DNA from: Flavobacteriales bacterium
GTDB lineage: Bacteria > Bacteroidota > Bacteroidia > Flavobacteriales_F > PHOS-HE28
Assembly: GCA_030584065.1 (NCBI GenBank)
Contig: CP129489.1
Coordinates: forward strand, 1,777,497-1,841,496
Direction of reading: 5' to 3'
DNA: 64,000 bases
A program made the position numbers and the translations under genes. A model generated the notes under the pieces. It made no database searches and was not told the origin of the DNA. It worked only from the letters and a program-made list of their open reading frames with translations. Position 1 is the first letter of the stretch. Every line of letters starts with the position of its first letter. This document shows positions 6,421 through 46,803 of this stretch, in pieces.

Positions 6421-7755
6421 ATGGGCGCGGGATTCATGTGCATACCGACCCTCGTGGCGCTCGCTCTCATCCTACCCGCATGCGCGGGAACGGCCCCCAC
6501 CGCAGGCGCTGCGCCCGCACCCGAGGAGCCTCCTTACTGGCCCCCCAGCGAGCCGGTGGCCGAGGACCGCATCTACTCCCCCACCATCCGCACCGTCCAG
6601 CTCTTCAAGGCGGGGTTCGAGCTGGCTCCGCCCGTGATCGAGCTCGGCGGCAACGACCAGGTGGTGCTCCGCTTCGACGACCTCGCTCCCACCGTGGAGG
6701 ACCTCTCCTACACCCTGGTGCATTGCGACCACTTGTGGCAGCCCACCGACCTGCAGCCTGGGCAGTACCTGGAGGGCGCCACCAACGCCTACCTCCCCGC
6801 TGGGCGCACCAGCTACAACACCCTGCAGCCCTTCATCCACTACGAGCTCGCCCTCCCCAACGCCGACATGCGGCCCGCACGCAGCGGCAACTACCTCCTC
6901 AAGGTGTACCGCGGCGGTGACGAGGAAGACCTTGTGCTCACCCGCCGCCTCCTCGTCTTCGAGCCCCGTGCCACCATCGATGCGCGCATCATGGCCACGC
7001 GCCAGGTGGACCTGCGCGATGTGGCACAGCAGCTCGACTTCACCGTGAACACCAATACCCTGCCCGTGCAGGATCCCTTCGGCGAGGTGCATGTGACCCT
7101 GCTGCAGAACATGCGCTGGCACGATGCCCGCACCGGTGCACAGCCCCGATTCGTGCGCGGCACCGAGCTGGTTTACGACTTCCCGGCACAGGGCCTCTTC
7201 ATGGCCGGTAACGAGTACCGCAACTTCGATGCGAAGGACCTGCGCTTCACCACCAACCGCATCCGCCGCATCGCGCCCGGCCTGGGCGAGCGCATCTATG
7301 AGGTGTGGCTGCTGCCCGAATCGCGCCGCAGCATCCGGCGCTACAACACCCTGCAGGACCTCAACGGGCGCTACCTGGTGCGCAACGACCAGGTGGACGG
7401 TGACCCCCTCGGTGCCGACTACGTGAACGTGCACTTCGCGCTGCCCATGGAGGCGCCGTTGATGCAGGAGGTGTATGTGTACGGCCAGCTCACGGACTGG
7501 CAATGCCGGCCTGAGCACCGGATGGCCTGGAGCCCCGCTGACAGCGCCTACACCGCAACCCTGCTCCTGAAGCAGGGCTTCTACGACTTCAGCTTCGTCA
7601 CCCTGCCGCGCGGCGAGCAGGTGCCCGACATCACCGCCATCGAAGGCAGCCATTTCGAGACGGAGAACGACTACCTCGTACTCGTGTACTTCACCGACCG
7701 CATGCAGCGCTGCGACCGGCTGGTGGGCGTGCGCTTCGTGAACAGCCGCCGGTAG
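6421..7755 (+). CDS. DUF5103-type lipoprotein (T9SS plug-like protein family)
   Basis: Real C-terminal part of the long track ORF. ATG at 6421, lipoprotein signal ...LILPACAGT, about 444 aa. Family assignment is from memory of Bacteroidota DUF5103 proteins. Confidence 0.55.
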   Translation: MGAGFMCIPTLVALALILPACAGTAPTAGAAPAPEEPPYWPPSEPVAEDRIYSPTIRTVQLFKAGFELAPPVIELGGNDQVVLRFDDLAPTVEDLSYTLVHCDHLWQPTDLQPGQYLEGATNAYLPAGRTSYNTLQPFIHYELALPNADMRPARSGNYLLKVYRGGDEEDLVLTRRLLVFEPRATIDARIMATRQVDLRDVAQQLDFTVNTNTLPVQDPFGEVHVTLLQNMRWHDARTGAQPRFVRGTELVYDFPAQGLFMAGNEYRNFDAKDLRFTTNRIRRIAPGLGERIYEVWLLPESRRSIRRYNTLQDLNGRYLVRNDQVDGDPLGADYVNVHFALPMEAPLMQEVYVYGQLTDWQCRPEHRMAWSPADSAYTATLLLKQGFYDFSFVTLPRGEQVPDITAIEGSHFETENDYLVLVYFTDRMQRCDRLVGVRFVNSRR

Positions 7756-26033: not shown

Positions 26034-26807
26034 ATGATACAGGAGCACAGCATCTCCGAGCGCCAAGCCTGCGGCAGCGTGGGCTTGGCGCGCAGCACCG
26101 CGCAGTACTGCAAGACCCCAGCGGATGACACGCCCATTATCCAGGTCTTGGAACAGCTCACCCAGAAGCACCCGGCCATCGGGGTGTGGCAAAGCCATCA
26201 TCGGATGCGCTTGATGGGTCACCTGTGGAACTTCAAGCGGGTGTATCGGGTCTACACCGGTCTGGGCCTCAACATTCGTCGCAGGGCCAAGAAACGGCTG
26301 CCTGCACGGGTGAAGCAGGCGCTGTTCCGTCCTGCTGGTCCGGACCAGGTCTACAGCATCGACTTCATGCATGACAGCCTCTGGGACGGCCGGACCTACC
26401 GCTTGCTAAATGTGATCGACGACTACAACAGGGAGGTGCTCGCGATCGAGGTGGACACCTCACTGCCCGCACTGCGCGTGATACGCGTGCTGGAACGCAT
26501 CAAAGCAGTGCGTCCGCTGCCCAAGATGATCCGCGTGGACAACGGCCCGGAGTTCATCAGCGCCAAGCTCGACCACTGGTGCCGCGAACACGGCATTACC
26601 TTGACCTACATCCAGCCAGGCAAGCCCACCCAGAACGCCTACATCGAACGCCTCAACGGCAGCATCCGTCGTGAACTGCTCAGCGCCTACGTGTTCCGTA
26701 CCTTGGACGAGGTGCGCGAGAAGGCCGATGAGTGGATGACCGATTACAACCATCACCGCCCACACAAGGCGCTTGGCTACCGGCCGCCAGCGCCCATCCG
26801 ATCCTAA
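26034..26807 (+). CDS. IS3-family transposase OrfB (DDE integrase core)
   Basis: Has the DNGPEF motif and the rve fold. It lies in the +1 frame relative to orfA, not the usual -1 (see findings). Confidence 0.8.
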
Positions 26808-27327: not shown

Positions 27328-28227
27328 ATGGCACACTGGCTTGTAACGCAGTGCAAGCGCAGTGTTCGGCGGGTCTGCAAGCTGCTATGCTTGAGCCAGA
27401 GCGTGTATCGCTACGAGCCCAAGCCGAAGGACGATATCGACGTGATCGAACACATGAACCACTGGGTGACCAAGAAACCGACCTGGGGCTTTTGGAAGGT
27501 GTACACTCGTGTACGCAAGGACGGCCGTGTGGTGAACCACAAGCGCCTACACCGGCTGTACACCACAGCAGGGCTCAACCTGCGTCGACCTACGAAGAAG
27601 CGCGTTCCGGACCGGGTGAAAGAGCCACTGTGTTTGCCGATCGGCCCGAACATCACTTGGAGCATGGACTTCATGGCCGACCGGCTGCTGAACGGCAACA
27701 AGCTGCGCACGTTCAACGTCATTGACGACTTCGGCCGCGAGGCACTGAACATCACGATCGACACCTCTATCCGCGCCCAGTACGTGACGCGTGAACTGGA
27801 CAAGTTGATCGAGTGGCGTGGCAAGCCAGAGCGGCTGCGAGTGGACAATGGCCCTGAGTTCATCGCCCAGGAGATGGAATTGTGGGCGGAACGCAACGGC
27901 ATCGCACTTACGTTCATCGAGAAGGGGCGTCCCATGCAGAACGGCCTGATCGAGCGATTCAATCGCACCTACCGGGAAGAAGTGCTGGACGCCTACCTGT
28001 TCGAGAACCTCGAACAGCTTCGCCAGCTGACCATCGAGTTCATCTGGAGCTACAACAACGAGCGGCCCCATGATGCACTCCTGGACCTGACCCCGCGCGA
28101 GTTCCTGTTGAAATGTGGACAACTCCCTGCCCACTACGCAGGCTCACGCGCGGACTTCCCCACATTCCAACAGGATGATCACCACAGATCAACAGAAGTG
28201 GTGATCTTTAGGAATTCGCGCGCCTGA
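27328..28227 (+). CDS. IS3-family transposase OrfB (DDE)
   Basis: DNGPEFIAQ...; -1 frame relative to orfA. The OrfAB fusion is reachable by slippage at the A_AAA_AAG site. Confidence 0.8.
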   Translation: MAHWLVTQCKRSVRRVCKLLCLSQSVYRYEPKPKDDIDVIEHMNHWVTKKPTWGFWKVYTRVRKDGRVVNHKRLHRLYTTAGLNLRRPTKKRVPDRVKEPLCLPIGPNITWSMDFMADRLLNGNKLRTFNVIDDFGREALNITIDTSIRAQYVTRELDKLIEWRGKPERLRVDNGPEFIAQEMELWAERNGIALTFIEKGRPMQNGLIERFNRTYREEVLDAYLFENLEQLRQLTIEFIWSYNNERPHDALLDLTPREFLLKCGQLPAHYAGSRADFPTFQQDDHHRSTEVVIFRNSRA

Positions 28228-29772: not shown

Positions 29773-29791
29773 GGCTTTGTTTCACTTATCG

Positions 29792-29890
29792 TTACATATT
29801 CCTCCGGTACTGCCCCCCCACCTCGAACATCGCTTGCGTCAACCGCCCTAGCGAGCAGTACTTCGTCGCCTCCATCAGCACCGCGAATCC
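29792..29890 (-). repeat. icmF 3'-terminus copy D (last ~33 codons plus stop), direct repeat
   Basis: ttacatattcctccggtactgccccc... encodes ...[31 protein letters not shown]; compare the real icmF end at 43246. Confidence 0.8.
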
Positions 29891-30281: not shown

Positions 30282-30395
30282 CGGGTCCGGTCACATGTTC
30301 CTCCGGTTCTGACCACCTACCTCGAACAACCTGTCCCGCCTTAGCGGATCGCTTGCGTCAACTGCCCCAGCGAGCAGTCCGTCGTCGCCTTCATC
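30282..30395 (-). repeat. icmF 3'-terminus copy E (degenerate)
   Basis: tcacatgttcctccggttctgaccacctacctcgaaca...cgcttgcgtcaactgccccagcgagcagtccgtcgtcgccttcatcagcac. Confidence 0.7.
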
Positions 30396-30420
30396 AGCAC
30401 GGAGCAGTTGACGCCGATGA

Positions 30421-30861
30421 TCATTTCAAGAACTCGTCCGTGAAGTTCCGCGCGCTCAGTATCCGTGTGTGTCCATAGCTCCGCATCGAGAGCAGGTCGT
30501 CATCGCCGGTGATCAGCAGATCAGCCTTCCCCTTCTTCGCCATCAGCAGCAGATAGTCATCCTTGGGGTCGCGGGAGAGGGGAGCCTGGCCGGTGGACCG
30601 CACCTCCACGGATTCCCCAGCTTCCGCCAGGGCGAGGATCAGTTGATGGGCGAACTCTACAGGGAAATGCTTGCGGAACCTCGCTCGTGCGGCCACATCC
30701 AGCAGCTCGGCCAGTAGTTGGGGGCTCACCAGCAGAACGAAGTCGCTGTGGCGCAAGGCAGCCACGAAGCCTCCCAGCCGCTTGCCGATCAGGAAGCTGA
30801 TGAGCACGTTGACGTCAACGACGACGCGCAGCGCGGCTCGCTTCCTTTTTGGCGGCGGCAT
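30421..30861 (-). CDS. PIN-domain toxin (putative toxin-antitoxin system toxin component, PIN family)
   Basis: VVDVNVLISFLIG...DDYLLLMAKKGKADLLITGDDDLL (the PIN acidic residues). Confidence 0.75.
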   Translation of the reverse strand: MPPPKRKRAALRVVVDVNVLISFLIGKRLGGFVAALRHSDFVLLVSPQLLAELLDVAARARFRKHFPVEFAHQLILALAEAGESVEVRSTGQAPLSRDPKDDYLLLMAKKGKADLLITGDDDLLSMRSYGHTRILSARNFTDEFLK

Positions 30862-31078: not shown

Positions 31079-31104
31079 GACCCAAAGATAAGCGATGCCC
31101 GGCC

Positions 31105-31215
31105 TTACATGTTCCTTCTGTACTGCCCACCCACCTCGAATCCCGCTCGTATGCCCGTACGCCTCGTTCCTCGGCAACGGTCATAACGGCGGGACTTCGC
31201 GCTGCTCAGCATACG
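31105..31215 (-). repeat. icmF 3'-terminus copy F (internally deleted version of copy D)
   Basis: ttacatgttccttctgtactgcccacccacctcgaa, then a post-divergence segment shared with copy D (...cggcgggacttcgcgctgct.agcat...). Confidence 0.7.
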
Positions 31216-31737
31216 CCTCATCACATATTACGTCGGTACTGTCCACCGACCTCAAACATAGCGGCGGTGAGCTGCCCCAGCGAACAATACTTCGTCGCCT
31301 CCATCAGCACCGCGAACATATTCTGGTTCCTGATCGCCGCCTGCTGAAGATCCTTGATCGCCTTGGCCGCCTCTGCCGAGTATGCCTGCTTCAAGTTCTC
31401 GACGGTGGCGATCTGCGCCTCCTTCTCCTCCTCGGTGGCGCGGATCACCTCCTTGGGCAGGATGGTGGGCGAGCCCTTGCTGCTGAGGAAGGTGTTCACG
31501 CCGATGATGGGGTATTCGCCGGTGTGCTTCAACGTTTCGTAGTAGAGGCTTTCCTCCTGGATGCGGCTGCGCTGGTACATGGTCTCCATGGCGCCCAGCA
31601 CGCCGCCGCGCTCGGTGATGCGATCGAACTCGGCCAAGACGGCCTCCTCCACCAGGTCGGTGAGCTCTTCGATGATGAAGCTGCCTTGCAGCGGGTTCTC
31701 GTTCTTGGCCAGGCCGAGCTCCTTGTTGATGATGAGC

Positions 31738-31930
31738 TCTTGGGTACCACACCGCACCCCGTTCCGGCGCCATCCGCCTTCGGCGGCCCCTTCGGGCGGG
31801 CGCGCTCGTCCGGCCATGCTGCGTTGCTCGTCGGTCGGCTACCTCGTGGTAGCCTCCCTTCCTCGCGCCTTGCCTGGCCGAACGATCATCGCCCGTGGCA
31901 TCCGTTCGGGGCACGGCGTGGTACCCTGTG
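31738..31930. repeat. MITE-like ~190-bp insert 1 (terminal inverted repeats GGGTACCAC / GTGGTACCC; core GCTACCTCGTGGTAGCCTC...CTGGCCGAACGATC...TGGCATC)
   Basis: Present in copy C between 'gatgatgagct' and 'ggccatggcgcgg'; absent from the intact icmF at 43730-43800. Confidence 0.65.
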
Positions 31931-32185
31931 GCCATGGCGCGGCGCACGCTTTCCTCGGTGCCTGAGCCTGCCCCGGCCTCCGAGCCGGGGTGGTGATGGC
32001 CTCGTCGTAGGCGTTGGTGTGCAGGCTGTTGCAGTTGTCGTAGATGGCGTAGAGCGCCTGCAACGTGGTGCGGATGTCGTTGAAGTCGATCTCCTGCGCG
32101 TGGAGGCTGCGGCCGCTGGTCTGGATGTGGTACTTCAGCATCTGGCTGCGCTCGTCGGCGCCGTAGCGGTGCTTGAGCGCCTTGG

Positions 32186-32382
32186 CCCGTTGGGTGCCAC
32201 GAAGTCCACCGAGCAGCGCCACTGCGGTGTAGCCGCTGCCCTTCGGGTGAGCGCCGCTCATTCGCCCATACTTCGTTGCTTCCTCAGTCAGCTACCTATG
32301 GGTAGCCTCTCTTCGTCGCGCCTCGTCTGGCCGAACGATCGTCACTCATGGCATCTGCCCGGCGAACTCCGAGGCACCCCGG
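32186..32382. repeat. MITE-like ~195-bp insert 2, same family as insert 1
   Basis: ...GCTACCTATGGGTAGCCTCTCTTCGTCGCGCCTCGTCTGGCCGAACGATCGTCACTCATGGCATCTGCCCGG...; absent from the intact icmF at 43985-44000. Confidence 0.65.
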
Positions 32383-32942
32383 CGGCGCGCCACGCGGCCC
32401 ATCACGGCGTACTCGGGGTCCATGCCGTTGCTGAAGAAGAAGCTCAGGTTGGGCGCGAAGGCGTTGATGTCCATGCCCCGGCTCAGGTAGTACTCCACGT
32501 AGGTGAAGCCGTTGGCCAAGGTGAAGGCAAGCTGGCTGATGGGGTTGGCGCCGGCCTCCGCGATGTGGTAGCCGCTGATGCTGACGCTGTAGAAGTTGCG
32601 GACCTTCTTGTCGATGAAGTATTGCTGCACATCGCCCATCAAGCGCAACGCGAACCTGCCTGTCCGGTAGGCAGGCTCGGTGCTGAAGATCGTTGTTCTG
32701 CGCCTGGTGGTTATGCCCGCCCTGAGCTTGTCGAAGGGTTGGGCGTGCCCCCTCGCAAAAGCCTCGGGGTCGCGTGCTTCGCTTTAGCCGGACTTGTCAG
32801 GGCCAGCATCCACGGCGCTGCGGGGTCCTCCTTCGTCGGCCTCCTCGCTGCTCGTGGTTGCAAGGCCCTTCCAGCGCCGGGCTGCCGCTTCGCCCGCTCA
32901 CGCAGATCCATTGTACCACGTTGAACGTGTACTTTTGTCCCA

Positions 32943-33299
32943 ATGCGCCGCCTCCTCTTCCTCCTAACCCTTGCCCTTTATGGCTATAGCGCCATGGATA
33001 TGCGCGAGTGGGTGCGAGTGCCGCAAGTGGTACTTCATATGCTGGAGCACCACAGCGATCTGGGCCACCATGACGAGGAAGGCTCGGACCATGAGCACGG
33101 TACCGGCCACGACCACATGCCCTTCGATTGTGATTGCCATGGCGAGTTCTGCGCATGCAGCGGCACGGTGGCCTTGTCCACTGAACCACAAGCCGCGCTG
33201 ATCTCGCTTGTTCCGCTCACCGCCACCTTGGGTGCCGCTGAACTTCCCATCGCTTCGGGTGCGTTCTCGGGCAACGTGTGGAACCCGCCCAAAGCCTGA
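32943..33299 (+). CDS. His/Cys-rich small putative metal-binding protein (signal or anchor helix at N-terminus)
   Basis: ...HHSDLGHHDEEGSDHEHGTGHDHMPFDCDCHGEFCACSG... Confidence 0.45.
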   Translation: MRRLLFLLTLALYGYSAMDMREWVRVPQVVLHMLEHHSDLGHHDEEGSDHEHGTGHDHMPFDCDCHGEFCACSGTVALSTEPQAALISLVPLTATLGAAELPIASGAFSGNVWNPPKA

Positions 33300-33405
33300 G
33301 TTGCCGCCACGTGCGGTAGTTCCTGCCTGTTCCGCCTGAGCGGATCGGGCTTGTCCGCGTTCCCGCGAACGCATTCCATTTCGTTCCATCTCGAAGTCAT
33401 TTCCC

Positions 33406-36400
33406 ATGATCGACCGGATCATCAAGTTCTCCATCCACAACAAGGCCATCATCGGGCTGTTCACGCTCGTGCTGGTGCTTTACGGGGCGTACTCGCTCAC
33501 GCAATTGCCGATCGATGCGGTACCCGACATCACCAACAACCAGGTGCAGGTGATCACCACCACGCCTACGCTGGCCGCGCAGGAGGTGGAACAGTTCGTT
33601 ACCGCGCCCATCGAGCGGGCCATGGCCAGCCTGCCCGATCTGGTGGAGATCCGCTCCATCAGCCGCTTCGGGCTAAGTCTTGTGACCATCGTATTCGATG
33701 AGGACGTGGACGTGTACTTCGCCCGCACCTTGGTGGACCAGCGCCTGGGCGAGGCCGCCGCACTGATACCGCCCGGGGTGGGCACACCGACCATGGCCCC
33801 GGTAAGCACCGGGTTGGGCGAGGTGTACCAATACGTGCTGCACCCCAAGGAAGGGTACGAGGGCACCTTCAGCCCCAGCGAGCTGCGCACCATCCAGGAA
33901 TGGATCGTAGTGCGGCAGCTGTTGGGCACACCCGGTGTGGCCGAGGTGAACAGCTACGGCGGCGAGGTGAAGCAGTACGAGGTGAGCGTGGACCCCAAGC
34001 GCTTGCAAAGCATGGGCGTCACCATCGGTGAGCTACTGCTCGCGTTGGAGAGCAACAACGAGAACACCGGCGGCGCCTACATCGAGAAACGGCCCAACAG
34101 CTACAGCATCCGGGGCGAAGGACTGCTGCGCACGCTGGACGACATCCGCAAGGTGGTGGTGAAGATCCCGCCCGGCGGTGTGCCGCTCCTGGTGGGCGAT
34201 GTGGCCGAGGTGGGCTTCGGTGCGGCCCCGCGCTACGGTGCGCTCACCCGCAATGGCGAAGGCGAAGCGGTGGGCGGCACGGTGATGATGCTGAAGGGTG
34301 GCAACAGCGCCGAAGTGGTGAAGGCTATTGAAGCGCGCATACCGAACGTGCAGAAGGCCCTGCCGGAAGGGCTGATGATCGAACCCTATCTGGTGCGCAG
34401 CGAACTGGTGGGGCGGGCCATCGGCACGGTGAAGACGAACCTGATCGAGGGCGCGTTGATCGTGATCTTCGTGCTGGTGCTCTTTCTAGGAAATTGGCGC
34501 GCGGGCCTCATCGTGGCCTCGGTGATCCCACTGTGCATGCTCTTCGCCATCATCCTCATGAACGCCTTCGGCGTCAGCGGCAATTTGATGTCGCTTGGTG
34601 CCATCGATTTCGGATTGATCGTGGACGGCGCCGTGATCATCGTGGAGGCCACCCTGCACCACCTGCATGCGCGCTTCAAGGGAAGGATCCTTACCCGCGA
34701 GGAGATGGACCGCGAGGTTTTCGTGAGCGCCAGCAAGATCCGGACGAGCGCGGCCTTCGGCGAGATCATCATCCTGATCGTGTACATCCCCATCCTCACA
34801 CTGGTGGGCATCGAGGGCAAGATGTTCCGCCCCATGGCCATCACCGTCAGCTTCGCCATCCTGGGTGCCCTGTTGCTCTCGCTCACCTATGTGCCCATGA
34901 TGAGCGCGCTGGTGCTGCCGCGCAACACGGCGCACAAACCCAACTTCAGCGACCGCATGATGGACCGTTTCCAGAAGTGGTACGATCCCATCATCGGCTT
35001 CGCCTTGCGCAACCGGATCAAGACCGTGGGTGTGGCCGTGGCGCTCTTCATCAGCTCGGTCTTCCTGTTCGCACGCATGGGCGGCGAGTTCATTCCCACC
35101 TTGGAAGAGGGCGACTTCGCCTTCCACAGCATCCTGCCGCAGGGCGCATCGCTCAGCCAGAGCATCGCCAACAACGCCAAGGTGGAGAAGATCCTGCTGC
35201 AATTCCCGGAGGTGAAGCAGGTGGTGGGACGCACCGGCAGCGCCGAGATCCCCACGGACCCCATGCCCCCCGAAGCCACGGACCTCATGATCATCTTGAA
35301 GGACAAGGACGAATGGACCACCGCGCACGACCGCGAGGCTTTGCAGGACACCATGCTGCAAGCCTTGAGGCAGGTACCCGGCGTGTTCTACGAAGCCACC
35401 CAACCCATCCAGATGCGCTTCAACGAATTGATGACCGGCATACGGCAGGACGTGGCCGTGAAGATCTACGGTGAGAACATGGACACCCTCGCGGTGATCG
35501 CGAACAAGGTGGCGGCGATCATCGGCGAAGTGCAAGGTGCGGGTGAACCGCAGGTGGAAAAGGTGGTGGGCCTGCCACAGATCACCATCACCTACGATCG
35601 TGCACGGGTAGCGCAGTACGGCCTCAACATCCGCGAACTGAACCGCACCGTGCGCACGGCCTTCGCGGGCGAGGCCACCGGCGTCATCTACGAGAACGAG
35701 CGCCGCTTCGATCTGGTGGTGCGCCTCGGTGACCAACAGCGGCAGAGCATCGACGATGTGCGCACCCTCTTCGTGGCGCTGCCCGGTGGCGGACAGATCC
35801 AGTTGCAGCAGGTGGCCGATGTGTCCTTGACACCCGGCCCGGCCCAGATCAGCCGGGAGGATGCCAAGCGCCGCATCGCCGTGGGCGTGAACATCCGTGG
35901 CCGTGACGTGGAAAGCTTCGTGGAAGAGCTCCAAGGCCGCATCGATGCCGAAGTGCCAATGCCCGCGGCCTACTACTACACCTTCGGCGGCACCTTCGAG
36001 AACCTGCAGGCAGCTAGCAAACGCCTGATGCTGGCGGTGCCCATCGCGCTGGCCCTCATCTTCCTGCTGCTCTTCTTCACCTTCAACAGCGTGAAGCGCG
36101 CCCTGCTGATCTACACCGCCATCCCCATGAGCGCCATCGGCGGTGTGCTTGCGCTCATGGCGCGCGGCATGCCCTTCAGCATCAGCGCGGGCGTGGGCTT
36201 CATCGCGCTCTTCGGCGTGGCGGTGCTCAACGGCATCGTCCTCATCGCCACCTTCGACCAACTGGAAAAGGAAGGCATCAGCGACCTGAAGGAGCGCGTG
36301 TTGAAAGGTACCCGCACACGGCTGCGTCCCGTGCTGATGACGGCGGCGGTGGCCTCGCTCGGTTTCCTGCCCATGGCCTTGAGCGGCAACGCGGGCGCGG

Positions 36401-37728
36401 AAGTGCAACGCCCCCTGGCCACGGTGGTGATCGGTGGCCTCATCACCGCCACGGCCCTCACCCTCATGGTGCTGCCGGTGCTTTACCTGCTCTTCATGGG
36501 CGGAGGCAGGAGGCGCAACGATGCCAATGGCGGCAAGGCGAACGCACCGCTGATCGTCGCGACCGTGCTGTTGATCATGATCGGCGGCACCAGCAGCGCA
36601 CAGGAACCGATGCCGATGGACACGGCGATCGCACGCGCCTTGCGCACCCATCCGAGCATGACCGCTGCGGAACTGCGTGTGCAGGAACAGGATGCCCTGC
36701 GTGGCACGGCCTTCGGGCTGCAGCCGCTCAACGCGCAATTCTCCCATGGCCAGACCCAGGGGCCGTATCCCAAGGACATTATCCTGGAAGCCAATACCGG
36801 GTTCGCATTTCCCACCACCATTGCCCGACGCGCGGCCTACCTGAAGGAAAGCCTGCACCTTGCGGAGAACGAAAAGCTGAACACGGCGGCCTACGTGAAG
36901 GAGAGCGCGGGAGGGGCCTACCTGCAATGGGCCATGGGCCTTGAACAGGTGCGTATCCTGCAACAGCTGGACAGCGCGTACGCATCCATGGCGGCCTTCG
37001 CGCTGCAGCGCTTCGAGCTCGGTGAGACCGGCCGCTTGGAAAGCACCAGTGCGCAAAGCCGCGCCGAGCAGGTGAAGGTGCGCTTGCGCCAGGCACAGGC
37101 TGATCTGGTGGCCTACCAGGTGGAAGTAGAACGCTGGACGGGCCCGCTCAGTGGTGCCGTGCCGGTGCCCGAGGAATTGCTCAACACCGCACGAGCGCCG
37201 GATCCCGGCGGCGGCAACGACCCGCTCCTGCTCTCCTTGCAGCAGCGCACGCAGGTGGCCGAGGCCGAATGGAAACTGCAACGCAGCCAATGGGCACCCA
37301 GCCTGCAGGGCGGCGGCTTCTACCAGACCTTCGATGGCACGTCGCCCTTTTCGGGCTTCCTCATCGGTGCTTCGATCCCCCTGCCCGGCAGCGGCCAGGG
37401 CGGTCGCACCTCGGCGGCACGTTTGCGCAGCGAGATCGCCGCGCAGGAACTGGAAGCCGCACGCCGACAGCGCAGCAGCGAGCGCGCCACCACGCAGGCG
37501 CAGCTCACTCAATTGCGCGAGAGCCTCGCCTTCTATGAAAGCACCGGTGCCGCGCTGGGTGCTACCCTGCGCGACGATGCCCTGCGTGCCTATCGCGCGG
37601 GCGAAGCCGACTACTTCCAATTCACTCAAGGCATCGAGCAGGCCTTTCAACTCAACGCCGAGCACCTGCGCGTGCGTTACGAGCTCGCACTTACCGTCCT
37701 CCACCTCCGTGCCCTCAATGGGCTCTAA
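33406..37728 (+). CDS. czcA: CzcA/CusA-family heavy-metal RND pump fused in frame to a TolC/CzcC-type outer-membrane factor (1440 aa, no stop between them)
   Basis: Residues 1-~1030 are a typical HME-RND (12 TM helices, two large loops). Then ...VLPVLYLLFMGGGRRRNDANGGKANAPLIVATVLLIMIGGTSSAQEP... (a signal-peptide-like segment) and ~400 aa of OMF repeats. Confidence 0.8.
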   Translation: MIDRIIKFSIHNKAIIGLFTLVLVLYGAYSLTQLPIDAVPDITNNQVQVITTTPTLAAQEVEQFVTAPIERAMASLPDLVEIRSISRFGLSLVTIVFDEDVDVYFARTLVDQRLGEAAALIPPGVGTPTMAPVSTGLGEVYQYVLHPKEGYEGTFSPSELRTIQEWIVVRQLLGTPGVAEVNSYGGEVKQYEVSVDPKRLQSMGVTIGELLLALESNNENTGGAYIEKRPNSYSIRGEGLLRTLDDIRKVVVKIPPGGVPLLVGDVAEVGFGAAPRYGALTRNGEGEAVGGTVMMLKGGNSAEVVKAIEARIPNVQKALPEGLMIEPYLVRSELVGRAIGTVKTNLIEGALIVIFVLVLFLGNWRAGLIVASVIPLCMLFAIILMNAFGVSGNLMSLGAIDFGLIVDGAVIIVEATLHHLHARFKGRILTREEMDREVFVSASKIRTSAAFGEIIILIVYIPILTLVGIEGKMFRPMAITVSFAILGALLLSLTYVPMMSALVLPRNTAHKPNFSDRMMDRFQKWYDPIIGFALRNRIKTVGVAVALFISSVFLFARMGGEFIPTLEEGDFAFHSILPQGASLSQSIANNAKVEKILLQFPEVKQVVGRTGSAEIPTDPMPPEATDLMIILKDKDEWTTAHDREALQDTMLQALRQVPGVFYEATQPIQMRFNELMTGIRQDVAVKIYGENMDTLAVIANKVAAIIGEVQGAGEPQVEKVVGLPQITITYDRARVAQYGLNIRELNRTVRTAFAGEATGVIYENERRFDLVVRLGDQQRQSIDDVRTLFVALPGGGQIQLQQVADVSLTPGPAQISREDAKRRIAVGVNIRGRDVESFVEELQGRIDAEVPMPAAYYYTFGGTFENLQAASKRLMLAVPIALALIFLLLFFTFNSVKRALLIYTAIPMSAIGGVLALMARGMPFSISAGVGFIALFGVAVLNGIVLIATFDQLEKEGISDLKERVLKGTRTRLRPVLMTAAVASLGFLPMALSGNAGAEVQRPLATVVIGGLITATALTLMVLPVLYLLFMGGGRRRNDANGGKANAPLIVATVLLIMIGGTSSAQEPMPMDTAIARALRTHPSMTAAELRVQEQDALRGTAFGLQPLNAQFSHGQTQGPYPKDIILEANTGFAFPTTIARRAAYLKESLHLAENEKLNTAAYVKESAGGAYLQWAMGLEQVRILQQLDSAYASMAAFALQRFELGETGRLESTSAQSRAEQVKVRLRQAQADLVAYQVEVERWTGPLSGAVPVPEELLNTARAPDPGGGNDPLLLSLQQRTQVAEAEWKLQRSQWAPSLQGGGFYQTFDGTSPFSGFLIGASIPLPGSGQGGRTSAARLRSEIAAQELEAARRQRSSERATTQAQLTQLRESLAFYESTGAALGATLRDDALRAYRAGEADYFQFTQGIEQAFQLNAEHLRVRYELALTVLHLRALNGL

Positions 37729-37740
37729 GACCGCATAGAC

Positions 37741-39120
37741 ATGAAAACGCAACCGATCAACAGCGCTCTTCAGCGCATGCCGAATACGCTCTTTCTGCTC
37801 CTGCTCACCATCGCACTGGCCGCCTGTGGCGGTGGCGCGGCCTCCGGCGAAGAAGAAGGCCATGGCCACGGCGAAGAGGAGGGCCACGGCGGTGGGAGCA
37901 CCGTCACCGTTTCGCCGCAACAATTCGCCGCCATCGAGGGCAAGCTTGGCAAGGTGGAGATGAAGGACCTCACCACCGCCCTCAAGGCCGTCGGCTTTTT
38001 GAAAGTGCCGCCGCAGAACGTCGCCGACATCACCGTGGCCATGGGAGGCACCGTGCGCGAAGTGCTGGTGCAGGAAGGCGACCATGTGAACAAGGGGCAG
38101 GTGCTCGCTACGGTCACCGACCCTTCGATCATCCAACTGCAACGCGACTACCTCGATGCGAAAGCACGACTGGTGTACGCCGAAACGGAATTGGAACGCC
38201 AGACCGAACTGGCCCGCGCCAACGTGAGCGCGCAGAAGACCCTGCAACAGGTCACGGCGGAACACGCCTCCTTGCGGGCCAGCGTGAACGCCCATGCCGA
38301 GCAGTTGCGCCTGATCAACATCGACCCCGAGAAGCTCACTGCCAATGCACTGCGCTCAGCCGCGGGCATCGTAAGCCCCATCGATGGCACCGTGGCGCAC
38401 ATCGCGGTGAACGTGGGAAGCAAGGTGAGCAACGATGCCACAATGTTCCGCGTGGTGAACAACAGCAAGCTCCACGTGGACCTCTTCCTCTACGAACAGG
38501 ACATCGCCTCCGTGAAGGTGGGCCAGACCATCGACCTCAGCCTCACCAACCTGCCGGGCAAGAACTACACGGCCGTGGTCTTCGCCATCGGCAGTGCCTT
38601 CGAACGCGAGACGAAGACGATCCCGGTGCACGCGGAGATCACCGGCGACAAAGTGGGCCTGATCGACGGCATGGGCGTTACCGGGCGCATCAGCGTAGGC
38701 AACGCCACCACCACCGCCGTGCTCACCGAGGCCATCGTGAACATGGAAGGCAAGGACTACGTGTTCATCAGGACCGAAGGTGAAGAGGAGCATGGGCACG
38801 GGCATGATGAAGAGCCCGCGCACAAGGAGGAACCGGCGCACAAACACACCGAAGGGGAAGCACACGATCACGCGAAGGAGAACAAGGCAACCCATGCACA
38901 AGGTGAGGTGCACGAACATGACCATAGCGATGAACATGCGCACGAGGCCGCAACCGGCAGCATGAGCTTCCAACGCATCGAAGTGAAGCGTGGAACGACC
39001 GATGGCGCGTACACAGCAGTAACCTTCCTGCAACCGGTGGACCCGGACGCCGAAGTGGTGACCGGTGGCGCCTACTACCTGATCGCGATGATGAACACGA
39101 GTGAAGGACACGAGCATTAA
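37741..39120 (+). CDS. czcB: efflux RND periplasmic adaptor (CzcB/HlyD family) with His-rich N- and C-terminal tails
   Basis: Lipoyl/beta-barrel MFP fold; EEGHGHGEEEGHGGG and GHGHDEEPAHKEEPAHKHTEGEAHDHAK...VHEHDHSDEHAHE metal-binding tracts. Confidence 0.85.
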   Translation: MKTQPINSALQRMPNTLFLLLLTIALAACGGGAASGEEEGHGHGEEEGHGGGSTVTVSPQQFAAIEGKLGKVEMKDLTTALKAVGFLKVPPQNVADITVAMGGTVREVLVQEGDHVNKGQVLATVTDPSIIQLQRDYLDAKARLVYAETELERQTELARANVSAQKTLQQVTAEHASLRASVNAHAEQLRLINIDPEKLTANALRSAAGIVSPIDGTVAHIAVNVGSKVSNDATMFRVVNNSKLHVDLFLYEQDIASVKVGQTIDLSLTNLPGKNYTAVVFAIGSAFERETKTIPVHAEITGDKVGLIDGMGVTGRISVGNATTTAVLTEAIVNMEGKDYVFIRTEGEEEHGHGHDEEPAHKEEPAHKHTEGEAHDHAKENKATHAQGEVHEHDHSDEHAHEAATGSMSFQRIEVKRGTTDGAYTAVTFLQPVDPDAEVVTGGAYYLIAMMNTSEGHEH

Positions 39121-39124
39121 GATC

Positions 39125-41005
<1,881 letters not shown>

Positions 41006-41038
41006 GGGTTCTGGAACATAACTTGCGTGGCTACGAAC

Positions 41039-41419
41039 ATGAAACAGCTGACCACCCTGCTCTTTGCCTTTTGCACACTGGGCCTATCTGCACAAACCGG
41101 TGCAGTTTCCCCGCCCGCCAAAGGCAAGAAGACCGCCACCATCGCCATCCAGAGCACTGGCATCTGCGATATGTGCGAGAAGACCATCGAGACCGAACTC
41201 GTCTATACCAAGGGCGTGAAGAAGGTGGATGTGGACCTCAGCACCGCTGCCGTGAGCGTGACCTACGATCCGCGCAAGACCGACGCGGACAAATTGCGTG
41301 CAGCACTCACCAAGCTGGGGTACTCCGCTGATGGTACACCGGGTAATGCCTCAGCATTTGCCAAGTTGCCCCAATGCTGCCAGAATGAAGGCTGCGGCAA
41401 GTTGCCGGTGAAGCAATGA
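41039..41419 (+). CDS. secreted HMA-domain (MerP-like) metal-binding protein with variant GICDMCE metal site and C-terminal CCQNEGCG
   Basis: Signal peptide MKQLTTLLFAFCTLGLSAQ; ferredoxin-like HMA fold ...IAIQSTGICDMCEKTIETEL... Confidence 0.65.
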   Translation: MKQLTTLLFAFCTLGLSAQTGAVSPPAKGKKTATIAIQSTGICDMCEKTIETELVYTKGVKKVDVDLSTAAVSVTYDPRKTDADKLRAALTKLGYSADGTPGNASAFAKLPQCCQNEGCGKLPVKQ

Positions 41420-41787
41420 AGCTTCATTGGGCCATGCCGACGCAGGTGCGGCCATACTACGGAGCAGAGTTGCGCAAGAGCGAAGAGGCTCGCACGCTCG
41501 GCGATCTGCAACTCGAATGGCACCATCTCGAGCGGGCCCATATTCTCGGCCAGCGTTGGCCCTTGGAGCACAACGCGGTGCATTGGCGCATGCTGAAGTT
41601 CGGGTTCCGTACCAAGAACATGCGCGAGATCATCGGACAGTTGCCGCGTCTGGTCTTCGGTGGGGTGAAGAGCTTCGCGGGCACGGTGCCGATCGGGAAT
41701 ACGGGCGGAGCGAATGTGCCGGCGCTGAAGCCGCTGGCGTTACCAGACGACCTAGCAGCGATACTCAATGACACCTTTGCCGTGTGA
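41416..41787 (+). CDS. DUF3703 domain protein (common next to heavy-metal efflux genes)
   Basis: MKLHWAMPTQ...LGDLQLEWHHLERAHILGQ...; 4-nt overlap with the preceding gene. Confidence 0.6.
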   Translation: MKLHWAMPTQVRPYYGAELRKSEEARTLGDLQLEWHHLERAHILGQRWPLEHNAVHWRMLKFGFRTKNMREIIGQLPRLVFGGVKSFAGTVPIGNTGGANVPALKPLALPDDLAAILNDTFAV

Positions 41788-41842
41788 TCGATAGTGCGAT
41801 CACCGTGTCCGAGAGTGAATGGAGTATCGTGCCCTTCGCGGG

Positions 41843-42312
41843 TCACATATTCCGCCGATACTGCCCCCCCACCTCAAACATTGCAGCAGTTAACTGACCC
41901 AGGCTGCAATACTTGGTCGCTTCCATCAAGACCGCAAACATGTTCTCGTTCTTGATCGCAGCCTCTTGAAGCTTCCGAGTGCGGCTTTCCCTTCAGCCTC
42001 ATAAGCCTTCTGCACGTTCTCCACGGTGCGGATCTGCGCTTCCTTCTCCTCTTCCGTAGCACGGATCACTTCCTTCGGGAGAACGGTCGGCGATCCTTTG
42101 CTCGACAAGAACGTGTTCACCCCAATGATCGGATACTCACCCGTGTGCTTCAGGGTCTCGTAGTACAAGCTCTCTTCCTGGATCCTTGAGCGCTGGTACA
42201 TGGTCTCCATGGCGCCCAGCACGCCGCCGCGCTCGGTGATGCGGTCGAACTCGCTGAGCACGGCCTCTTCCACCAGGTCGGTGAGCTCCTCGATGATGAA
42301 GCTGCCCTCGCG
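41843..42312 (-). pseudogene. icmF 3' copy B (~470 bp, frameshifted)
   Basis: Track ORFs 41926..42273 and 41874..42062 give ...[93 protein letters not shown]..., then the frame is lost. Confidence 0.8.
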
Positions 42313-42328
42313 CGTTCCCTTGCTTTGA

Positions 42329-43249
42329 TCACACTACGATGTACCGCTCTTGCAAATACGTTAGCCACTTATCGAAATCGGGTGATGGCGAATGCTCCTG
42401 GCAGATATCAAGAAATCGTTCATAAGTAAGCGTCATGAACCTGCCGTCCGGTGCGGCTAGGAAGGACTTGTAGCCTGTGCAAGCGTCGTCCATGTGCTTA
42501 TTGCCTTTCGGGAACAAGGTGAGCGAGGTAGCGTGGGCAAATCGCTCAGGATGCTTGAGCAGAATGCTCTCCGCGAGTAGGTGGTTCCGCCAGATCTGCC
42601 GGTAATCGTCTGTGATCACCTGTGTTTCGCATCCCGGCTTGAATATCCCACAGGCAGCCATGACCTTGAAGTAAATAGAGGCTCGGTCATTCACAGTTCG
42701 CTCTTCCGTGGAGCCATGCTTCAATTTGTAGGCGCGTTCGGTGTACTTCACCTCAATCCCGATAAGCCCCCGCCGACCTTCCTTATCAGTGCTTTCGGTA
42801 TATGCATCGAAAGATGTACCATCATTCAAATACTCTGAACGTGGCGACGGCGCAAACTCGATGCGAATCGGATCGACAGTGCTCAAGGGTTCTCCAAGCA
42901 AGTCTGAGAAAACCTGCAGGCGATACTTATCGTCCAAGTTCAGGGGCCAGAGCATGTTCAACGGAATGTGCTCGCTCCGAAGCATGTTCCCATAGACCTT
43001 CTCGCTCGTTATCGGATAACGCTTCCTAGCGGCTTCCAAGATGCCTAACTCGGGATAGAAGTTGCATCCTGCATCCGCGTCGCATGGCGTTAGGAAGTTG
43101 CCGTAGTTCTTCGTCTTACTCCATCCGTGTGGCAATTTCAACCGCTCTGCACGGAATCTTGATTGATGAAGGCGCGCCTTCTTCAGGAATTCGGACTTAT
43201 CGAGTCCGTCATCCCCGCTGTATTGTGGTCCGATACCGTAACTCATCAC
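42329..43249 (-). CDS. hypothetical PD-(D/E)XK-like nuclease-fold protein (cargo of the cassette nearest icmF)
   Basis: ...[29 protein letters not shown]... (D...E-x-K). AT-richer than the flanks. Its start overlaps the icmF stop. Confidence 0.4.
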
Positions 43250-46200
43250 ATATTCCTTCTGTACTGTCCGCCGACTTCGAACATGGCCGCAGTGAGTTGA
43301 CCGAGACTACAGTACTTGGTGGCTTCCATCAACACTTCGAACATGTTCTCATTCTTGATCGCAGCTTGCTGGAGGTCTTTGATGGCTTTGGCCGCCTCAT
43401 CCGCATAAGCAGTTCGGAGATTCTCGACGGTCGCTATCTGGGCTTCTTTCTCCTCTTCCGTAGCTCTGATGACCTCTTTCGGCAAGATCGTCGGTGATCC
43501 TTTGCTCGACAGGAAGGTATTCACCCCGATGATGGGATACTCACCCGTGTGCTTCAAGGTCTCGTAGTACAAGCTTTCCTCCTGGATGCGGCTGCGCTGG
43601 TACATCGTTTCCATCGCACCCAAGACCCCACCACGTTCCGTGATCCGATCGAACTCCGTCAACACCGCTTCCTCGACGAGATCCGTCAATTCTTCGATGA
43701 TGAAGCTGCCCTGCAACGGGTTCTCGTTCTTGGCCAGGCCGAGCTCGCGGTTGATGATGAGCTGGATGGCCATGGCGCGGCGCACGCTTTCCTCGGTGGG
43801 CGTGGTGATGGCCTCGTCGTAGGCGTTGGTGTGCAGGCTGTTGCAGTTGTCGTAGATGGCGTACAGCGCCTGCAACGTGGTGCGGATGTCGTTGAAGTCG
43901 ATCTCCTGCGCGTGCAGGCTGCGGCCGCTGGTCTGGATGTGGTACTTGAGCATCTGGCTGCGCTCGTCGGCGCCGTAGCGGTGCTTGAGCGCCTTGGCCC
44001 AGAGGCGACGCGCCACGCGGCCCATCACGGCGTACTCGGGGTCCATCCCGTTGCTGAAGAAGAAGCTCAGGTTGGGCGCGAAGGCGTTGATGTCCATGCC
44101 CCGGCTGAGGTAGTACTCCACGTAGGTGAAGCCGTTGGCCAGCGTGAACGCGAGCTGCGAAATGGGGTTGGCGCCGGCCTCCGCGATGTGGTAGCCGCTG
44201 ATGCTGACGCTGTAGAAGTTGCGGACCTTTTGGTCGATGAAGTACTGCTGAACGTCGCCCATCAAACGCAGCGCGAACTCGGTGCTGAAGATGCAGGTGT
44301 TCTGCGCCTGGTCCTCTTTGAGGATGTCGGCCTGCACGGTGCCGCGGACGCTCTGCAGGGTCTCCGCCTTGATCTTCTCGTAGACGTCTTTCGGGAGGAC
44401 TTGGTCGCCGGTGATGCCGAGCAACAACAATCCTAGGCCATCATTGCCCGCAGGTATTTCTCCGTGGTAGCGCGGTCGAGGTGAATGGTGAATGGGAGTT
44501 GGTGAATGGGAAGAGCCCTTCCCTCCATTCGCCATTGACCATTCGCCATTCGCCTTCTCCAACTTCTCCCAGCGCTCCTTGATCTTCTTCTCCACCTCGG
44601 CCTCCAACCCGTGCTCACGGATGTACTTCTCACAGTTCTGGTCGATCGCGGCGTTCATGAAGAAGCCGAGGAGCATGGGCGCGGGACCGTTGATGGTCAT
44701 GCTCACGCTGGTGTTGGGCGCGGTGAGGTCGAAGCCGCTGTAGAGCTTCTTGGCATCGTCCAGGCAGCAGATGCTCACACCGCTGTTGCCCACCTTGCCG
44801 TAGATGTCGGGCCTGCGACCGGGATCGTGGCCGTAGAGCGTCACGCTGTCGAACGCGGTGCTGAGGCGCTTGGCGGGCATGCCCTGGCTCACGTAGTGGA
44901 AGCGCTTGTTGGTGCGCTCCGGACCGCCCTCGCCGGCGAACATGCGCGCGGGGTCCTCGCCCTGGCGCTTGAAGGGATAGATGCCCGCGGTGTAGGGGTA
45001 CGACCCCGGGGTGTTCTCCTGCATGGCCCAGCGCACCTTGTCGCCCCAGCTGCGGAACTTGGGCAGCGCCACCTTCGGGATCTTCAGGTGACTGAGGCTC
45101 TCGGTGTGGTTGGGCACCTTGATCTCCTTGCCGCGGACGGAGTAGGTGTAGAATTCACCGGAGTATTTCTCCTCCTCCTTCTTCCAGTTCTGGAGCATGG
45201 ACCAGAGGTGGGGGTCGAGGTCTTTGCGGATGTCCTCGAACTTCTTCACCAGCTCAGTAACGAGTGGTGAGTGGCGAGTGGCGAGTGTGCCGTCGGAGGC
45301 AGCACTCGCCACTCGCGACTCGTCACTCACCACTCCGTGAAGGACGTCAGGCCCGCCGAGCGTGAGGATCGATGAGTACAGACCATAGAGTTGGTCCGCA
45401 ATACGTGCCTGTTTCGTCACCCGATCATCATACCTCCGGTTGTTCTCGCTGATCTCGCTGAGGTAGCGGCTCTTGGCGGGGGGAATGATCCACACCTTCT
45501 CGCTCATCTCGTCCATCCCGTGGAAGGTGCTCTTGAAGTCCACGCCGGTCTTCTCGGCGATCTTGGTCATCAAGCGGGCGTAGAGCGTGTTGGTGCCGGG
45601 ATCGTTGAACTGGCTGGCGATGGTGCCCACCACGGGGAGCGTGTCATCGTCGGCGTCCCACAGCTGGTGGTTGCGCTTATACTGCTTCTTCACGTCGCGC
45701 AGGGCATCGAGGGCGCCGCGCTTGTCGAACTTGTTGATGGCCACCACGTCGGCGAAGTCGAGCATGTCGATCTTCTCCAGCTGCGTGGCCGCGCCGAACT
45801 CCGGCGTCATGATGTAGAGGCTCACATCGCTGTGGTCCAGGATCTCGGTATCGCTCTGGCCGATGCCGCTCGTCTCCAGGATGATCAGGTCGAAGCCCGC
45901 GGCCTTCAGCACGCTCACGGCCTCCTTCACGTGCTTGCTGAGGGCCAGGTTGCTCTGGCGCGTGGCGAGGCTGCGCATGTATACACGCTCGCCGCGGATG
46001 CTGTTCATGCGGATGCGGTCGCCCAGCAGCGCGCCGCCGGTCTTGCGCTTGCTCGGGTCCACGCTGATCACGCCGATGGTCTTGCCTTGGTCCGGGCTTG
46101 ACCCGGACTGGTCCAGGATGAAGCGGCGGATGAGCTCGTCCACCATGGACGATTTACCCGCGCCGCCCGTACCCGTGATGCCCAGCACGGGAGCCTTGTT

Positions 46201-46803
46201 CGCCTCGGCCTGCTTGTGGATCTCGTCGGCGATCTTGGCGAACACCTCGGGATGGTTCTCGGCCGTGCTGATCAACTTGGCGATGGCCGGCCAGTTCTGC
46301 GGCGTCAGCTTCTTCGCCTCGCCGTTCACCTTATCGCTCAGGTCGAAGTCGGCCTTCTCCAGCATGTCGTTGATCATGCCCTGCAGGCCCATCGCGCGAC
46401 CGTCATCCGGATGGTACAGGCGCGTGATGCCGTACGCGTGCAGCTCCTCGATCTCGCTGGGCAGGATCGTCCCGCCGCCACCGCCGAAGATCTTGATGTG
46501 CCCCGCGCCCTTCTCCTTCAGCAGGTCGAACATGTACTTGAAGTACTCCACGTGCCCGCCCTGGTAGCTGGTCATGGCAATGGCGTGGGCATCCTCCTGG
46601 ATCGCGGTGTTCACCACGTCCTCCACGCTGCGGTCGTGCCCCAGGTGGATCACCTCGGCGCCGGTGCTCTGGATGATCCGCCGCATGATGTTGATGGCGG
46701 CATCGTGGCCGTCGAACAACGAGGCGGCGGTGACCACGCGGATCTTGTTCTTGGGCTGGTAGGGAGGAGCTTGCACGAACGTTGACATGTACGGAGGCCG
46801 CAA
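43246..46803 (-). CDS. icmF: fused isobutyryl-CoA mutase (B12-binding domain, MeaB-like G-protein, mutase barrel), with two in-frame palindromic insertions
   Basis: [11 protein letters not shown]12 DxHxxG; [13 protein letters not shown]-loop; methylmalonyl-CoA-mutase-like C-terminal half ending ...[11 protein letters not shown]. 1185 aa against ~1090 typical. Confidence 0.9.
44479..44551. repeat. in-frame palindromic insertion 1 in icmF (arms of GAATGG-type short repeats around GGGAAGAGCCCTTCCC)
   Basis: ggtgaatggtgaatgggagttggtgaatgggaagagcccttccctccattcgccattgaccattcgccattcgcc; encodes the odd segment ...[26 protein letters not shown]... Confidence 0.6.
45262..45334. repeat. in-frame palindromic insertion 2 in icmF (arms of GAGTGGC-type short repeats)
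   Basis: gagtggtgagtggcgagtggcgagtgtgccgtcggaggcagcactcgccactcgcgactcgtcactcaccactc; encodes ...[24 protein letters not shown]... Confidence 0.6.

Follow-up and report, generated by a model that had tools for sequence, protein, structure and literature searches.

In a tripartite heavy-metal efflux system the pump belongs to the inner membrane and the channel to the outer. Can one open reading frame (ORF) supply both, and, if so, how would the channel be delivered to its membrane? The question is raised by a locus within a 64,000-nucleotide stretch of a Flavobacteriales bacterium genome (assembly GCA_030584065.1, contig CP129489.1, positions 1,777,497 to 1,841,496), referred to here as the window. 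A single ATG-initiated ORF (33406..37728, + strand; 1440 aa) encodes an RND pump (aa 1-1030), a 35-aa linker (1031-1065) and an outer-membrane factor (OMF; 1066-1440). An initial annotation of the window had proposed this arrangement and offered two explanations, a linker that places the OMF in the periplasm, perhaps with cleavage, or a czcA-czcC pair that had lost its stop codon. We find that the fusion is real, and consider it probable that the ORF encodes a natural polyprotein from which signal peptidase would release two components of such a system. The membrane topology, the cleavage between A1065 and Q1066 and the fate of both products are predicted from sequence comparison.

A complete pump and a complete channel in one frame

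The fused ORF comprises the following features.

33406..36495, + strand: RND inner-membrane pump domain (CzcA/ZneA-type heavy-metal efflux, HME), aa 1-1030, ending with the twelfth transmembrane helix (TM12, ...VLPVLYLLF); from Pfam, NCBIfam and PDB alignment
36496..36549, + strand: linker n-region, aa 1031-1048 (MGGGRRRNDANGGKANAP), positively charged (RRR, K), presumably cytoplasmic; read from the sequence
36550..36588, + strand: linker h-region, aa 1049-1061 (LIVATVLLIMIGG), hydrophobic core of 13 residues with a predicted helix, putative 13th membrane segment with N-in/C-out orientation; from the sequence and AlphaFold2
36589..36603, + strand: linker c-region TSSA plus Q1066, with a predicted signal peptidase I site at A1065/Q1066; from alignment, motif and Q-rule
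36601..37728, + strand: OMF domain (TolC/CusC fold), predicted mature aa 1066-1440 (375 aa), plus stop codon; from Pfam OEP, AlphaFold2 and Foldseek

The Pfam family ACR_tran covers aa 5-1030 of the pump half (E 8e-283), with profile positions 1-1020 of 1021 matched. NCBIfam model TIGR00914 (CusA/CzcA) scores 1177.7 bits over aa 1-1033, above its cut-off of 701.45, which places the protein in the HME-RND family. Its nearest solved relative is ZneA (4k0e; residues 1-1014 against aa 1-1029, E 4.7e-204), with CusA second (E 1.4e-169), and end-to-end alignment to both accords with a complete 12-helix architecture with two large periplasmic loops. The TM4 stretch of the translation, AIDFGLIVDGAVIIVEA, contains DFG and DGA, with VEA at the VEN position; it resembles DFG-DGA-VEN, which we take to be the charged TM4 motif of divalent-cation HME pumps. 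Proton-driven metal export by this half is putative, in a context where a ZntA-type ATPase, an HMA-domain protein and an adaptor adjoin.

The channel half matched Pfam OEP (PF02321) in two stretches extending to aa 1437 (E 1.6e-24; 87.2 bits against a cut-off of 22). A PDB sequence search with the channel domain gave no match at E <= 0.01, and the fold was therefore assigned by modelling and Foldseek. An AlphaFold2 model of ORF residues 983-1440, built as a monomer on an 88-sequence alignment, had a mean pLDDT of 89.4, rising above 90 over the channel domain, and adopted the fold of a TolC-family protomer with four beta-strands and helices of 67-69 residues. Its best Foldseek matches were SilC (9rmm) and CusC (3pik) with E ~2e-15 and TM-scores of 0.65-0.69, followed by TolC, OprM and CmeC. 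All 44 matches with E <= 0.001 were TolC-family outer-membrane channels, the first 39 having TM-scores of 0.61-0.69. The channel is predicted to form an outer-membrane trimer. No Cys lies near the junction, and position +1 is occupied by Gln in place of the lipobox Cys of the CusC, OprM and NodT subclass; the channel would therefore be non-lipidated and TolC-like. It differs from other OMFs in its export signal, which does not head a separate polypeptide but is internal, following 1030 pump residues in the same ORF.

Both halves of the 1440-aa ORF are complete proteins, and the ORF is a true RND-OMF fusion. The ORF itself and the Pfam and NCBIfam matches bear out the initial annotation on this point. 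The stop-free run that it had described from TM12 (...VLPVLYLLF) through MGGGRRRNDANGGKANAPLIVATVLLIMIGGTSSA|QEP also reads exactly so: the junction is ...VLPVLYLLF-MGGGRRRNDANGGKANAP-LIVATVLLIMIGG-TSSA|QEPMPMDTAIARAL..., with M1031 at nt 36496, A1065 ending at 36600 and Q1066 at 36601-36603.

A 1269-aa antisense open frame (34486-38295, - strand) crosses most of the fused gene. It is very probably a stop-poor frame and not a gene, because the window has 63% G+C and the sense strand gives strong family matches.

Conservation of the fused junction and its split relatives

When one genome per species was scanned, 36 loci were found, every one of them in metagenome-assembled genomes (MAGs) of Flavobacteriales or Bacteroidota. 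The junction was open in every locus that reached it, at 71-100% identity in the channel part. About 20 distinct linker sequences were present, and since these differ at many positions the assemblies are independent. Only two copies were interrupted (L032, frame ending at 6432, and L033, frame ending at 4414). Both breaks lie downstream of the junction, inside the OMF part, and are likely indel errors, contigs named 'tig...' suggesting long-read assemblies.

When the linker and channel were used as a query against 5.8 billion proteins, the best 120 matches nearly all carried both PF00873 and PF02321. Named sources included Cyclobacteriaceae, Balneolaceae, Chitinophagaceae, Dyadobacter, Maribacter, Polaribacter, Paludibacter and Prolixibacteraceae. 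With the whole protein as query, the best 120 matches were about 1430-1465 aa long and contained both domains, except for two partial entries (1210 and 958 aa). Isolates with closed genomes among the whole-protein matches included Solitalea longa, Taibaiella koreensis, Paraflavitalea pollutisoli and three species of Chitinophaga, and Dysgonomonas isolates were also among the best 120 full-length fused matches. Cultured Chitinophaga that carry the fused protein include C. caseinilytica, C. cymbidii and C. lutea. HMMER recovered 1424 relatives of the channel part from 1.84 billion cluster representatives; among the best 150 of these, 48 include the RND C-terminus, a few more begin inside TM12, and several dozen are apparent stand-alone proteins of ~400 aa with N-terminal signal peptides.

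Judged by these comparisons, the fusion is genuine and widespread in Bacteroidota. The initial annotation had entertained a recent stop loss or a sequencing error, to be recognized by orthologues carrying a stop codon at this position. Under such a scenario an error or mutation deleted the czcA stop, and the locus is in truth two genes or a pseudogene; split czcA/omf pairs with a 1-nt spacer or a 4-nt overlap do exist, and a single-base change could fuse them. We regard this as scarcely credible, given that the junction is open in every independent assembly reaching it, through ~20 linker sequences, that full-length fused proteins occur in hundreds of clusters, closed isolate genomes included, that the linker is under evident selection, and that the sole interrupted copies break farther downstream, in the OMF part. 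All orthologous loci that extend to the junction are fused there, as are the best 120 full-length homologues, which rules out sequencing error or recent stop loss; split forms are confined to more distant relatives.

Split operons with the order czcA-omf-mfp, mfp being the adaptor gene, were verified individually. In one (L037), czcA ends with ...LPILYGIFENNKSK and a stop, the genes are joined as TAA-A-ATG (1-nt spacer), the channel begins MKRYIIIVWSTMLGSSGFTQ|S..., and the third gene encodes the adaptor. In a second type (L038/L039) the genes overlap by 4 nt (ATGA), with ...LPVLYAYTHNVKFRRIRNKNNGI and a stop followed by MNRNRLALLFTLLVSSGFAQ|TPLELEDLMALS. The third, in the complete genome CP110139.1 (L040), has a 290-nt spacer from czcA to omf. 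The czcA stop lies 10-17 residues past TM12 in the split operons and the channel has its own start codon. These operons share gene order, OMF subfamily and cleavage-site column with the locus in the window, but there the frame is uninterrupted. P0163, the channel of L038, shares 64% identity with the fused protein P0072, whose junction reads ...LPVLYAYSHHIKFRGIRKRRSMGKLNKNTLTALLLLVSISGFSQ|TQLNLEDLMALS; overall, identity is 64-65% between the stand-alone proteins P0163 and P0174 and the fused proteins P0072 and P0106.

By alignment, the fused linker is the RND tail and a former signal peptide brought into one frame, and fused and split states interconvert at modest evolutionary distance; both should therefore deliver the same end product, a free channel. 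The fusion probably arose from adjacent or overlapping czcA-omf genes, long ago and more than once. A neighbour-joining tree with Fitch parsimony gave 47 fusion/fission changes, a number that we judged unreliable and did not rely on, because the tree is crude and the 'stand-alone' class includes contig-edge fragments called from an internal Met, such as P0003, P0004 and P0125.

Linker design and proposed processing

The n-h-c architecture of a Sec signal peptide, with an AXA-like cleavage site, had been recognized in the initial annotation and is borne out both by the sequence and by a design conserved in fused homologues. The linker has a charged n-region (RRR..K), an h-region within the usual 10-15 residues (LIVATVLLIMIGG) and a polar c-region (TSSA), with the signal peptidase I and Q-rule residues in place: S at -3, A at -1 and Q at +1. 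It departs from a classical signal peptide in its location, starting at residue 1031, after TM12, and not at the N-terminus. Among 88 aligned fused sequences with 26-84% identity to the query, no part of the protein varies more than the linker, yet Q1066 is among just 15 invariant columns (88/88). When 263 fused relatives were aligned together with 76 putatively stand-alone ones, the +1 column contained Q in 248/263 and 69/76 sequences, respectively. In the fused forms, position -1 is A in 83% and A, S or G in 98%, position -3 is A/S/L/V/T/I/G, and neither profile differs from that of the N-terminal signal peptides in stand-alone proteins. The predicted site of the fused forms falls in the very alignment column at which the N-terminal signal peptides of the stand-alone relatives are cleaved.

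The n-region of 248 fused homologues has a median of 4 K+R, while its sequence is not itself conserved. Fused forms have a median uncharged h+c span of 17 residues, compared with 16 in the N-terminal signal peptides of stand-alone relatives, a statistic that is blurred by K at position -2 and for which the medians alone were used. The motif [AVSTGILC]x[AGS]Q after a hydrophobic core, a crude one, was found in 150/161 linkers (93%) versus 15.6% of controls, these being 24-residue windows of the same proteins. The open frame and the n-h-c/AXA|Q design are kept in relatives down to about 25% identity. On this comparative evidence, the linker is under selection like that on a cleaved signal peptide, with free sequence and kept design. 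Retention of the Gln in an otherwise free-drifting linker is the pattern that a cut at the preceding bond would produce, and its conservation at +1 would be meaningful only where cleavage exposes the residue. Under the Q-rule of Bacteroidetes, more than 60% of signal peptidase I substrates carry Gln at +1, and the exposed Gln is converted to pyroglutamate by a periplasm-facing glutaminyl cyclase (PMC5837995). The species concerned are Porphyromonas gingivalis, Tannerella, Parabacteroides, Prevotella and Cytophaga, with few proteins per species (PMC5837995).

We propose that the ribosome would first make the complete 12-helix CzcA/ZneA-type pump, with its C-terminus in the cytoplasm. RND C-termini are cytoplasmic after TM12 in the AcrB, CusA and ZneA structures, and K/R residues follow TM12 here, fitting an N-in/C-out topology for the next segment. 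Translation would run on into the 35-residue internal Sec signal peptide, whose K/R n-region would stay in the cytoplasm while the 13-residue h-region crosses the inner membrane as a 13th helix, N-in/C-out, followed by the c-region TSSA. The signal peptide would start export of the 375-residue TolC/CusC-fold domain to the periplasm, and signal peptidase I would cut at A1065/Q1066 to free the OMF. The new N-terminal Gln would probably be cyclised to give (pyro)QEPMPMDTAIAR, as in other secreted proteins of Bacteroidota, and the free factor would enter the outer membrane and trimerise. What is left of the signal peptide after the cut would stay on the pump, giving it 35 more residues and an additional helix at its C-terminus, and the adaptor encoded 12 nt downstream would link pump and channel. 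The fusion would in this way ensure equimolar pump and channel from one translation start. The initial annotation had listed a linker that places the factor in the periplasm, perhaps with cleavage, among its options, and the comparative data favour that option.

Several points weigh against such processing. Cleavage is deduced from the sequence, and an internal signal peptide after 12 helices is unusual, so that efficient processing would have to be assumed by analogy. AlphaFold2 confidence in the linker is low (pLDDT 50-67). The residue statistics above come from sets that hold close relatives and some contig-edge fragments, and their counts are not independent observations. Stoichiometry as the benefit of the fusion is speculation.

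The h-region might instead be a permanent 13th transmembrane helix that is never cut, leaving the channel covalently tethered to the pump, either spanning both membranes or confined to the periplasm. The frame is continuous, the segment is hydrophobic and predicted helical (model residues 65-77, low-to-moderate confidence), and the evidence for a cut is indirect. An uncleaved anchor would, however, leave the conserved small residues at -3 and -1 and the near-invariant Gln at +1 without a role. Its h-region of ~13 residues would also be short, its uncharged span equalling that of the cleaved signal peptides of stand-alone relatives, and relatives 64-65% identical work as free proteins. Geometry bears on the same point. 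Only ~5 residues separate the predicted cut site from the first OMF helix in the AlphaFold2 model, and the dimensions of TolC (1ek9) and AcrAB-TolC (5ng5) put the N-terminus of the assembled channel more than 100 angstroms from the inner membrane. Because of this short gap and the height of the channel N-terminus above the inner membrane, an uncleaved tether looks geometrically impossible for a canonical pump, as far as the model goes. We consider a permanent anchor very unlikely. Also very unlikely is the bolder idea that an uncleaved junction builds a covalently linked trans-envelope machine or, in a milder version, that the junction is cleaved and the retained signal peptide serves the pump as a structural or regulatory 13th helix, comparable to small single-helix partners such as AcrZ.

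A further alternative is an internal translation start. The in-frame ATG at 36496 (M1031) could begin an independent 410-aa pre-channel, and the fusion would then act for the most part like two nested genes. M1031 is kept in all close relatives reaching the junction (LLFMGGG, LLFMSAG, MLFMRIG) while its neighbours vary, M1031-A1065 alone would be a textbook N-terminal signal peptide, and gene callers on truncated contigs begin there (P0003, 410 aa). Across the 248 fused homologues, however, the n-region contains a Met in 103, and within four residues of TM12 in 47, and read-through from the RND part would still give the fusion. An internal start could be an additional route in the close clade and not an alternative. 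We judge two nested genes to be improbable. Since the Met is not conserved (103/248), an internal start at M1031 was ruled out as a general mechanism of the family; as a clade-specific second route it is a minor possibility.

The junction also contains a motif that the initial annotation had read as a possible fossil ribosome-binding site and start of an independent czcC:

36508-36513, + strand: AGGAGG, then a 7-nt spacer, an ATG (36521-36523) and a 10-codon ORF (MPMAARRTHR and a stop) to 36553; +1 frame, by-product of Arg-Arg codons

The motif and its short ORF exist, although they span 36508-36523 and not 36519-36534, the original placement being about 11 nt off. Their reading as a relic does not stand. 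The motif is present with an ideal 7-nt spacing, and could in principle be what remains of the start of a czcC gene that was formerly separate, or else direct a programmed frameshift. It is, however, in the wrong frame and opens just 10 codons, AGGAGG encodes R1035-R1036 of the n-region, and the channel of split relatives starts at or over the czcA stop, not in the +1 frame 25 nt into the tail. The hexamer is AGGAAG in one relative (L011) and absent at that position in all others. Bacteroidota make little use of Shine-Dalgarno sites. A fossil or active start here is highly improbable, and a ribosome-binding relic or frameshift signal at AGGAGG was ruled out by this lack of conservation.

Genomic setting, known systems and implications

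The fused ORF lies in a block with the following neighbours.

32943..33299, + strand: ORF of 118 aa rich in His and Cys, inside the conserved block and directly before the pump gene; from translation and a sub-threshold CopL-like match
37741..39120, + strand: periplasmic adaptor (membrane-fusion protein, CzcB/CusB-like); HlyD_D23 E 9e-31, TIGR01730 E 3e-39
39101..41005, + strand: heavy-metal P1B-type ATPase (Zn/Cd/Pb type); TIGR01525 E 1e-157, ZntA-type models next, and Pfam E1-E2_ATPase
41027-41419: HMA-domain protein, after the ATPase gene and followed by a DUF3703 protein
29789-29887, 30308-30406, 31218-32655, 41840-42316 and 43243-44312: IcmF-like 3'-end copies, bracketing the metal-resistance block
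26034-26807 and 27328-28227, + strand: two ORFs for IS3-type transposases with an rve integrase core, close upstream of the island
30421-30861, - strand: PIN-domain ORF, just upstream of the island

Between the fused ORF and the adaptor gene lie 12 nt. The listed GTG start of the ATPase overlaps the adaptor end by 20 nt (39101-39120), and its true start may therefore lie farther downstream. The product of the 118-aa ORF is hydrophobic at its N-terminus and contains a stretch rich in His, Asp and Cys, HHSDLGHHDEEGSDHEHGTGHDHMPFDCDCHGEFCAC; its sole match, to CopL-family metal-binding regulators, is weak and sub-threshold (E 0.002), and it is possibly a metal-binding protein. From their annotation, the fused ORF, adaptor, ATPase, HMA-domain protein and small ORF together form a metal-resistance cluster. 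Neither Pfam nor NCBIfam recognized two further long ORFs: 31095-32924 (+ strand, 609 aa), which runs opposite the IcmF-3'-end copies, and 39946-41331 (+ strand, 461 aa), which is contained in the ATPase gene but read in a different frame. In DNA of such high G+C content, both are probably spurious.

A ~9.6-kb czc/ATPase block (32739-42317) is present at 94-96% DNA identity in 13 MAGs representing different species (L001-L012, L030). The junction protein sequence is identical or nearly so in these 13 MAGs, and the flanks of the block are arranged differently. This suggests recent horizontal spread of the czc/ATPase island among Flavobacteriales. A minus-strand gene at 43246..46803 encodes a 1185-aa MeaB and methylmalonyl-CoA-mutase fusion (IcmF-like), and its 3' end occurs in the five direct partial copies listed above, 67-98% identical. 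These look like the outcome of repeated island integration into the 3' end of that gene, each event supplying a replacement gene end. The transposase and PIN-domain ORFs upstream are consistent with a mobile region.

The ORF is predicted to work as part of a tripartite metal pump of the CzcCBA/ZneCAB type. Those systems of Cupriavidus metallidurans likewise combine an HME-type RND pump with a TolC-family channel and a periplasmic adaptor, but as three separate polypeptides in gene order C-B-A, whereas here the order is A(+C)-B with pump and channel in one ORF. The channel of the window also has no lipobox Cys and carries an internal signal peptide at the joint. CusCFBA and SilCBA provided the best structural matches of the channel model (CusC 3pik, SilC 9rmm), and CusA is the second-best relative of the pump. 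CusC, however, is a separate lipoprotein acylated at its N-terminal Cys after signal peptidase II, in contrast to the +1 Gln and signal peptidase I type of site found here, and no CusF-like gene was seen at this locus. The ORF is a variant of these systems, since its OMF is not a separate polypeptide and its signal peptide is not N-terminal.

A parallel for the mechanism is the FbcH cytochrome b/c1 polyprotein of Bradyrhizobium japonicum, in which, according to work reportedly by Thony-Meyer and colleagues (~1989-1991), cleavage at an internal signal peptide that follows the last helix yields the two mature subunits. As proposed here, FbcH is said to join a polytopic inner-membrane protein to a periplasm-facing protein in one ORF. 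Both of its products reportedly stay at the inner membrane, whereas the second product here would reach the outer membrane; the proteins are non-homologous and the analogy is one of mechanism. No paper on the FbcH precedent turned up in our literature search. Nor was a description of an RND-channel fusion found, a weak negative in view of the incomplete coverage of the search, and an earlier mention is possible. The accessible portion of a 2021 Chem Rev review of tripartite pumps does not mention such a fusion. The fused architecture is not new to sequence databases, where a great number of these proteins are already listed as 'CusA/CzcA family heavy metal efflux RND transporter'; the ORF of the window is a typical member of this widespread fused group.

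The literature, as far as it was accessible, invariably presents tripartite efflux pumps as assemblies of three separate proteins; a large share of Bacteroidota encodes two of the three in one ORF. Because these ~1440-aa proteins are named only as RND transporters, their channel is invisible to gene-content surveys of metal and drug resistance. Topology and localisation predictors will likewise misplace the channel of the fused proteins. If the proposed cleavage is true, the ORF would be a bacterial polyprotein whose halves end in different membranes. It would also offer a rare opportunity to study signal peptidase at a site that follows a membrane protein of 12 helices, and be a natural device for 1:1 supply of pump and channel in a phylum without classical translational coupling signals.

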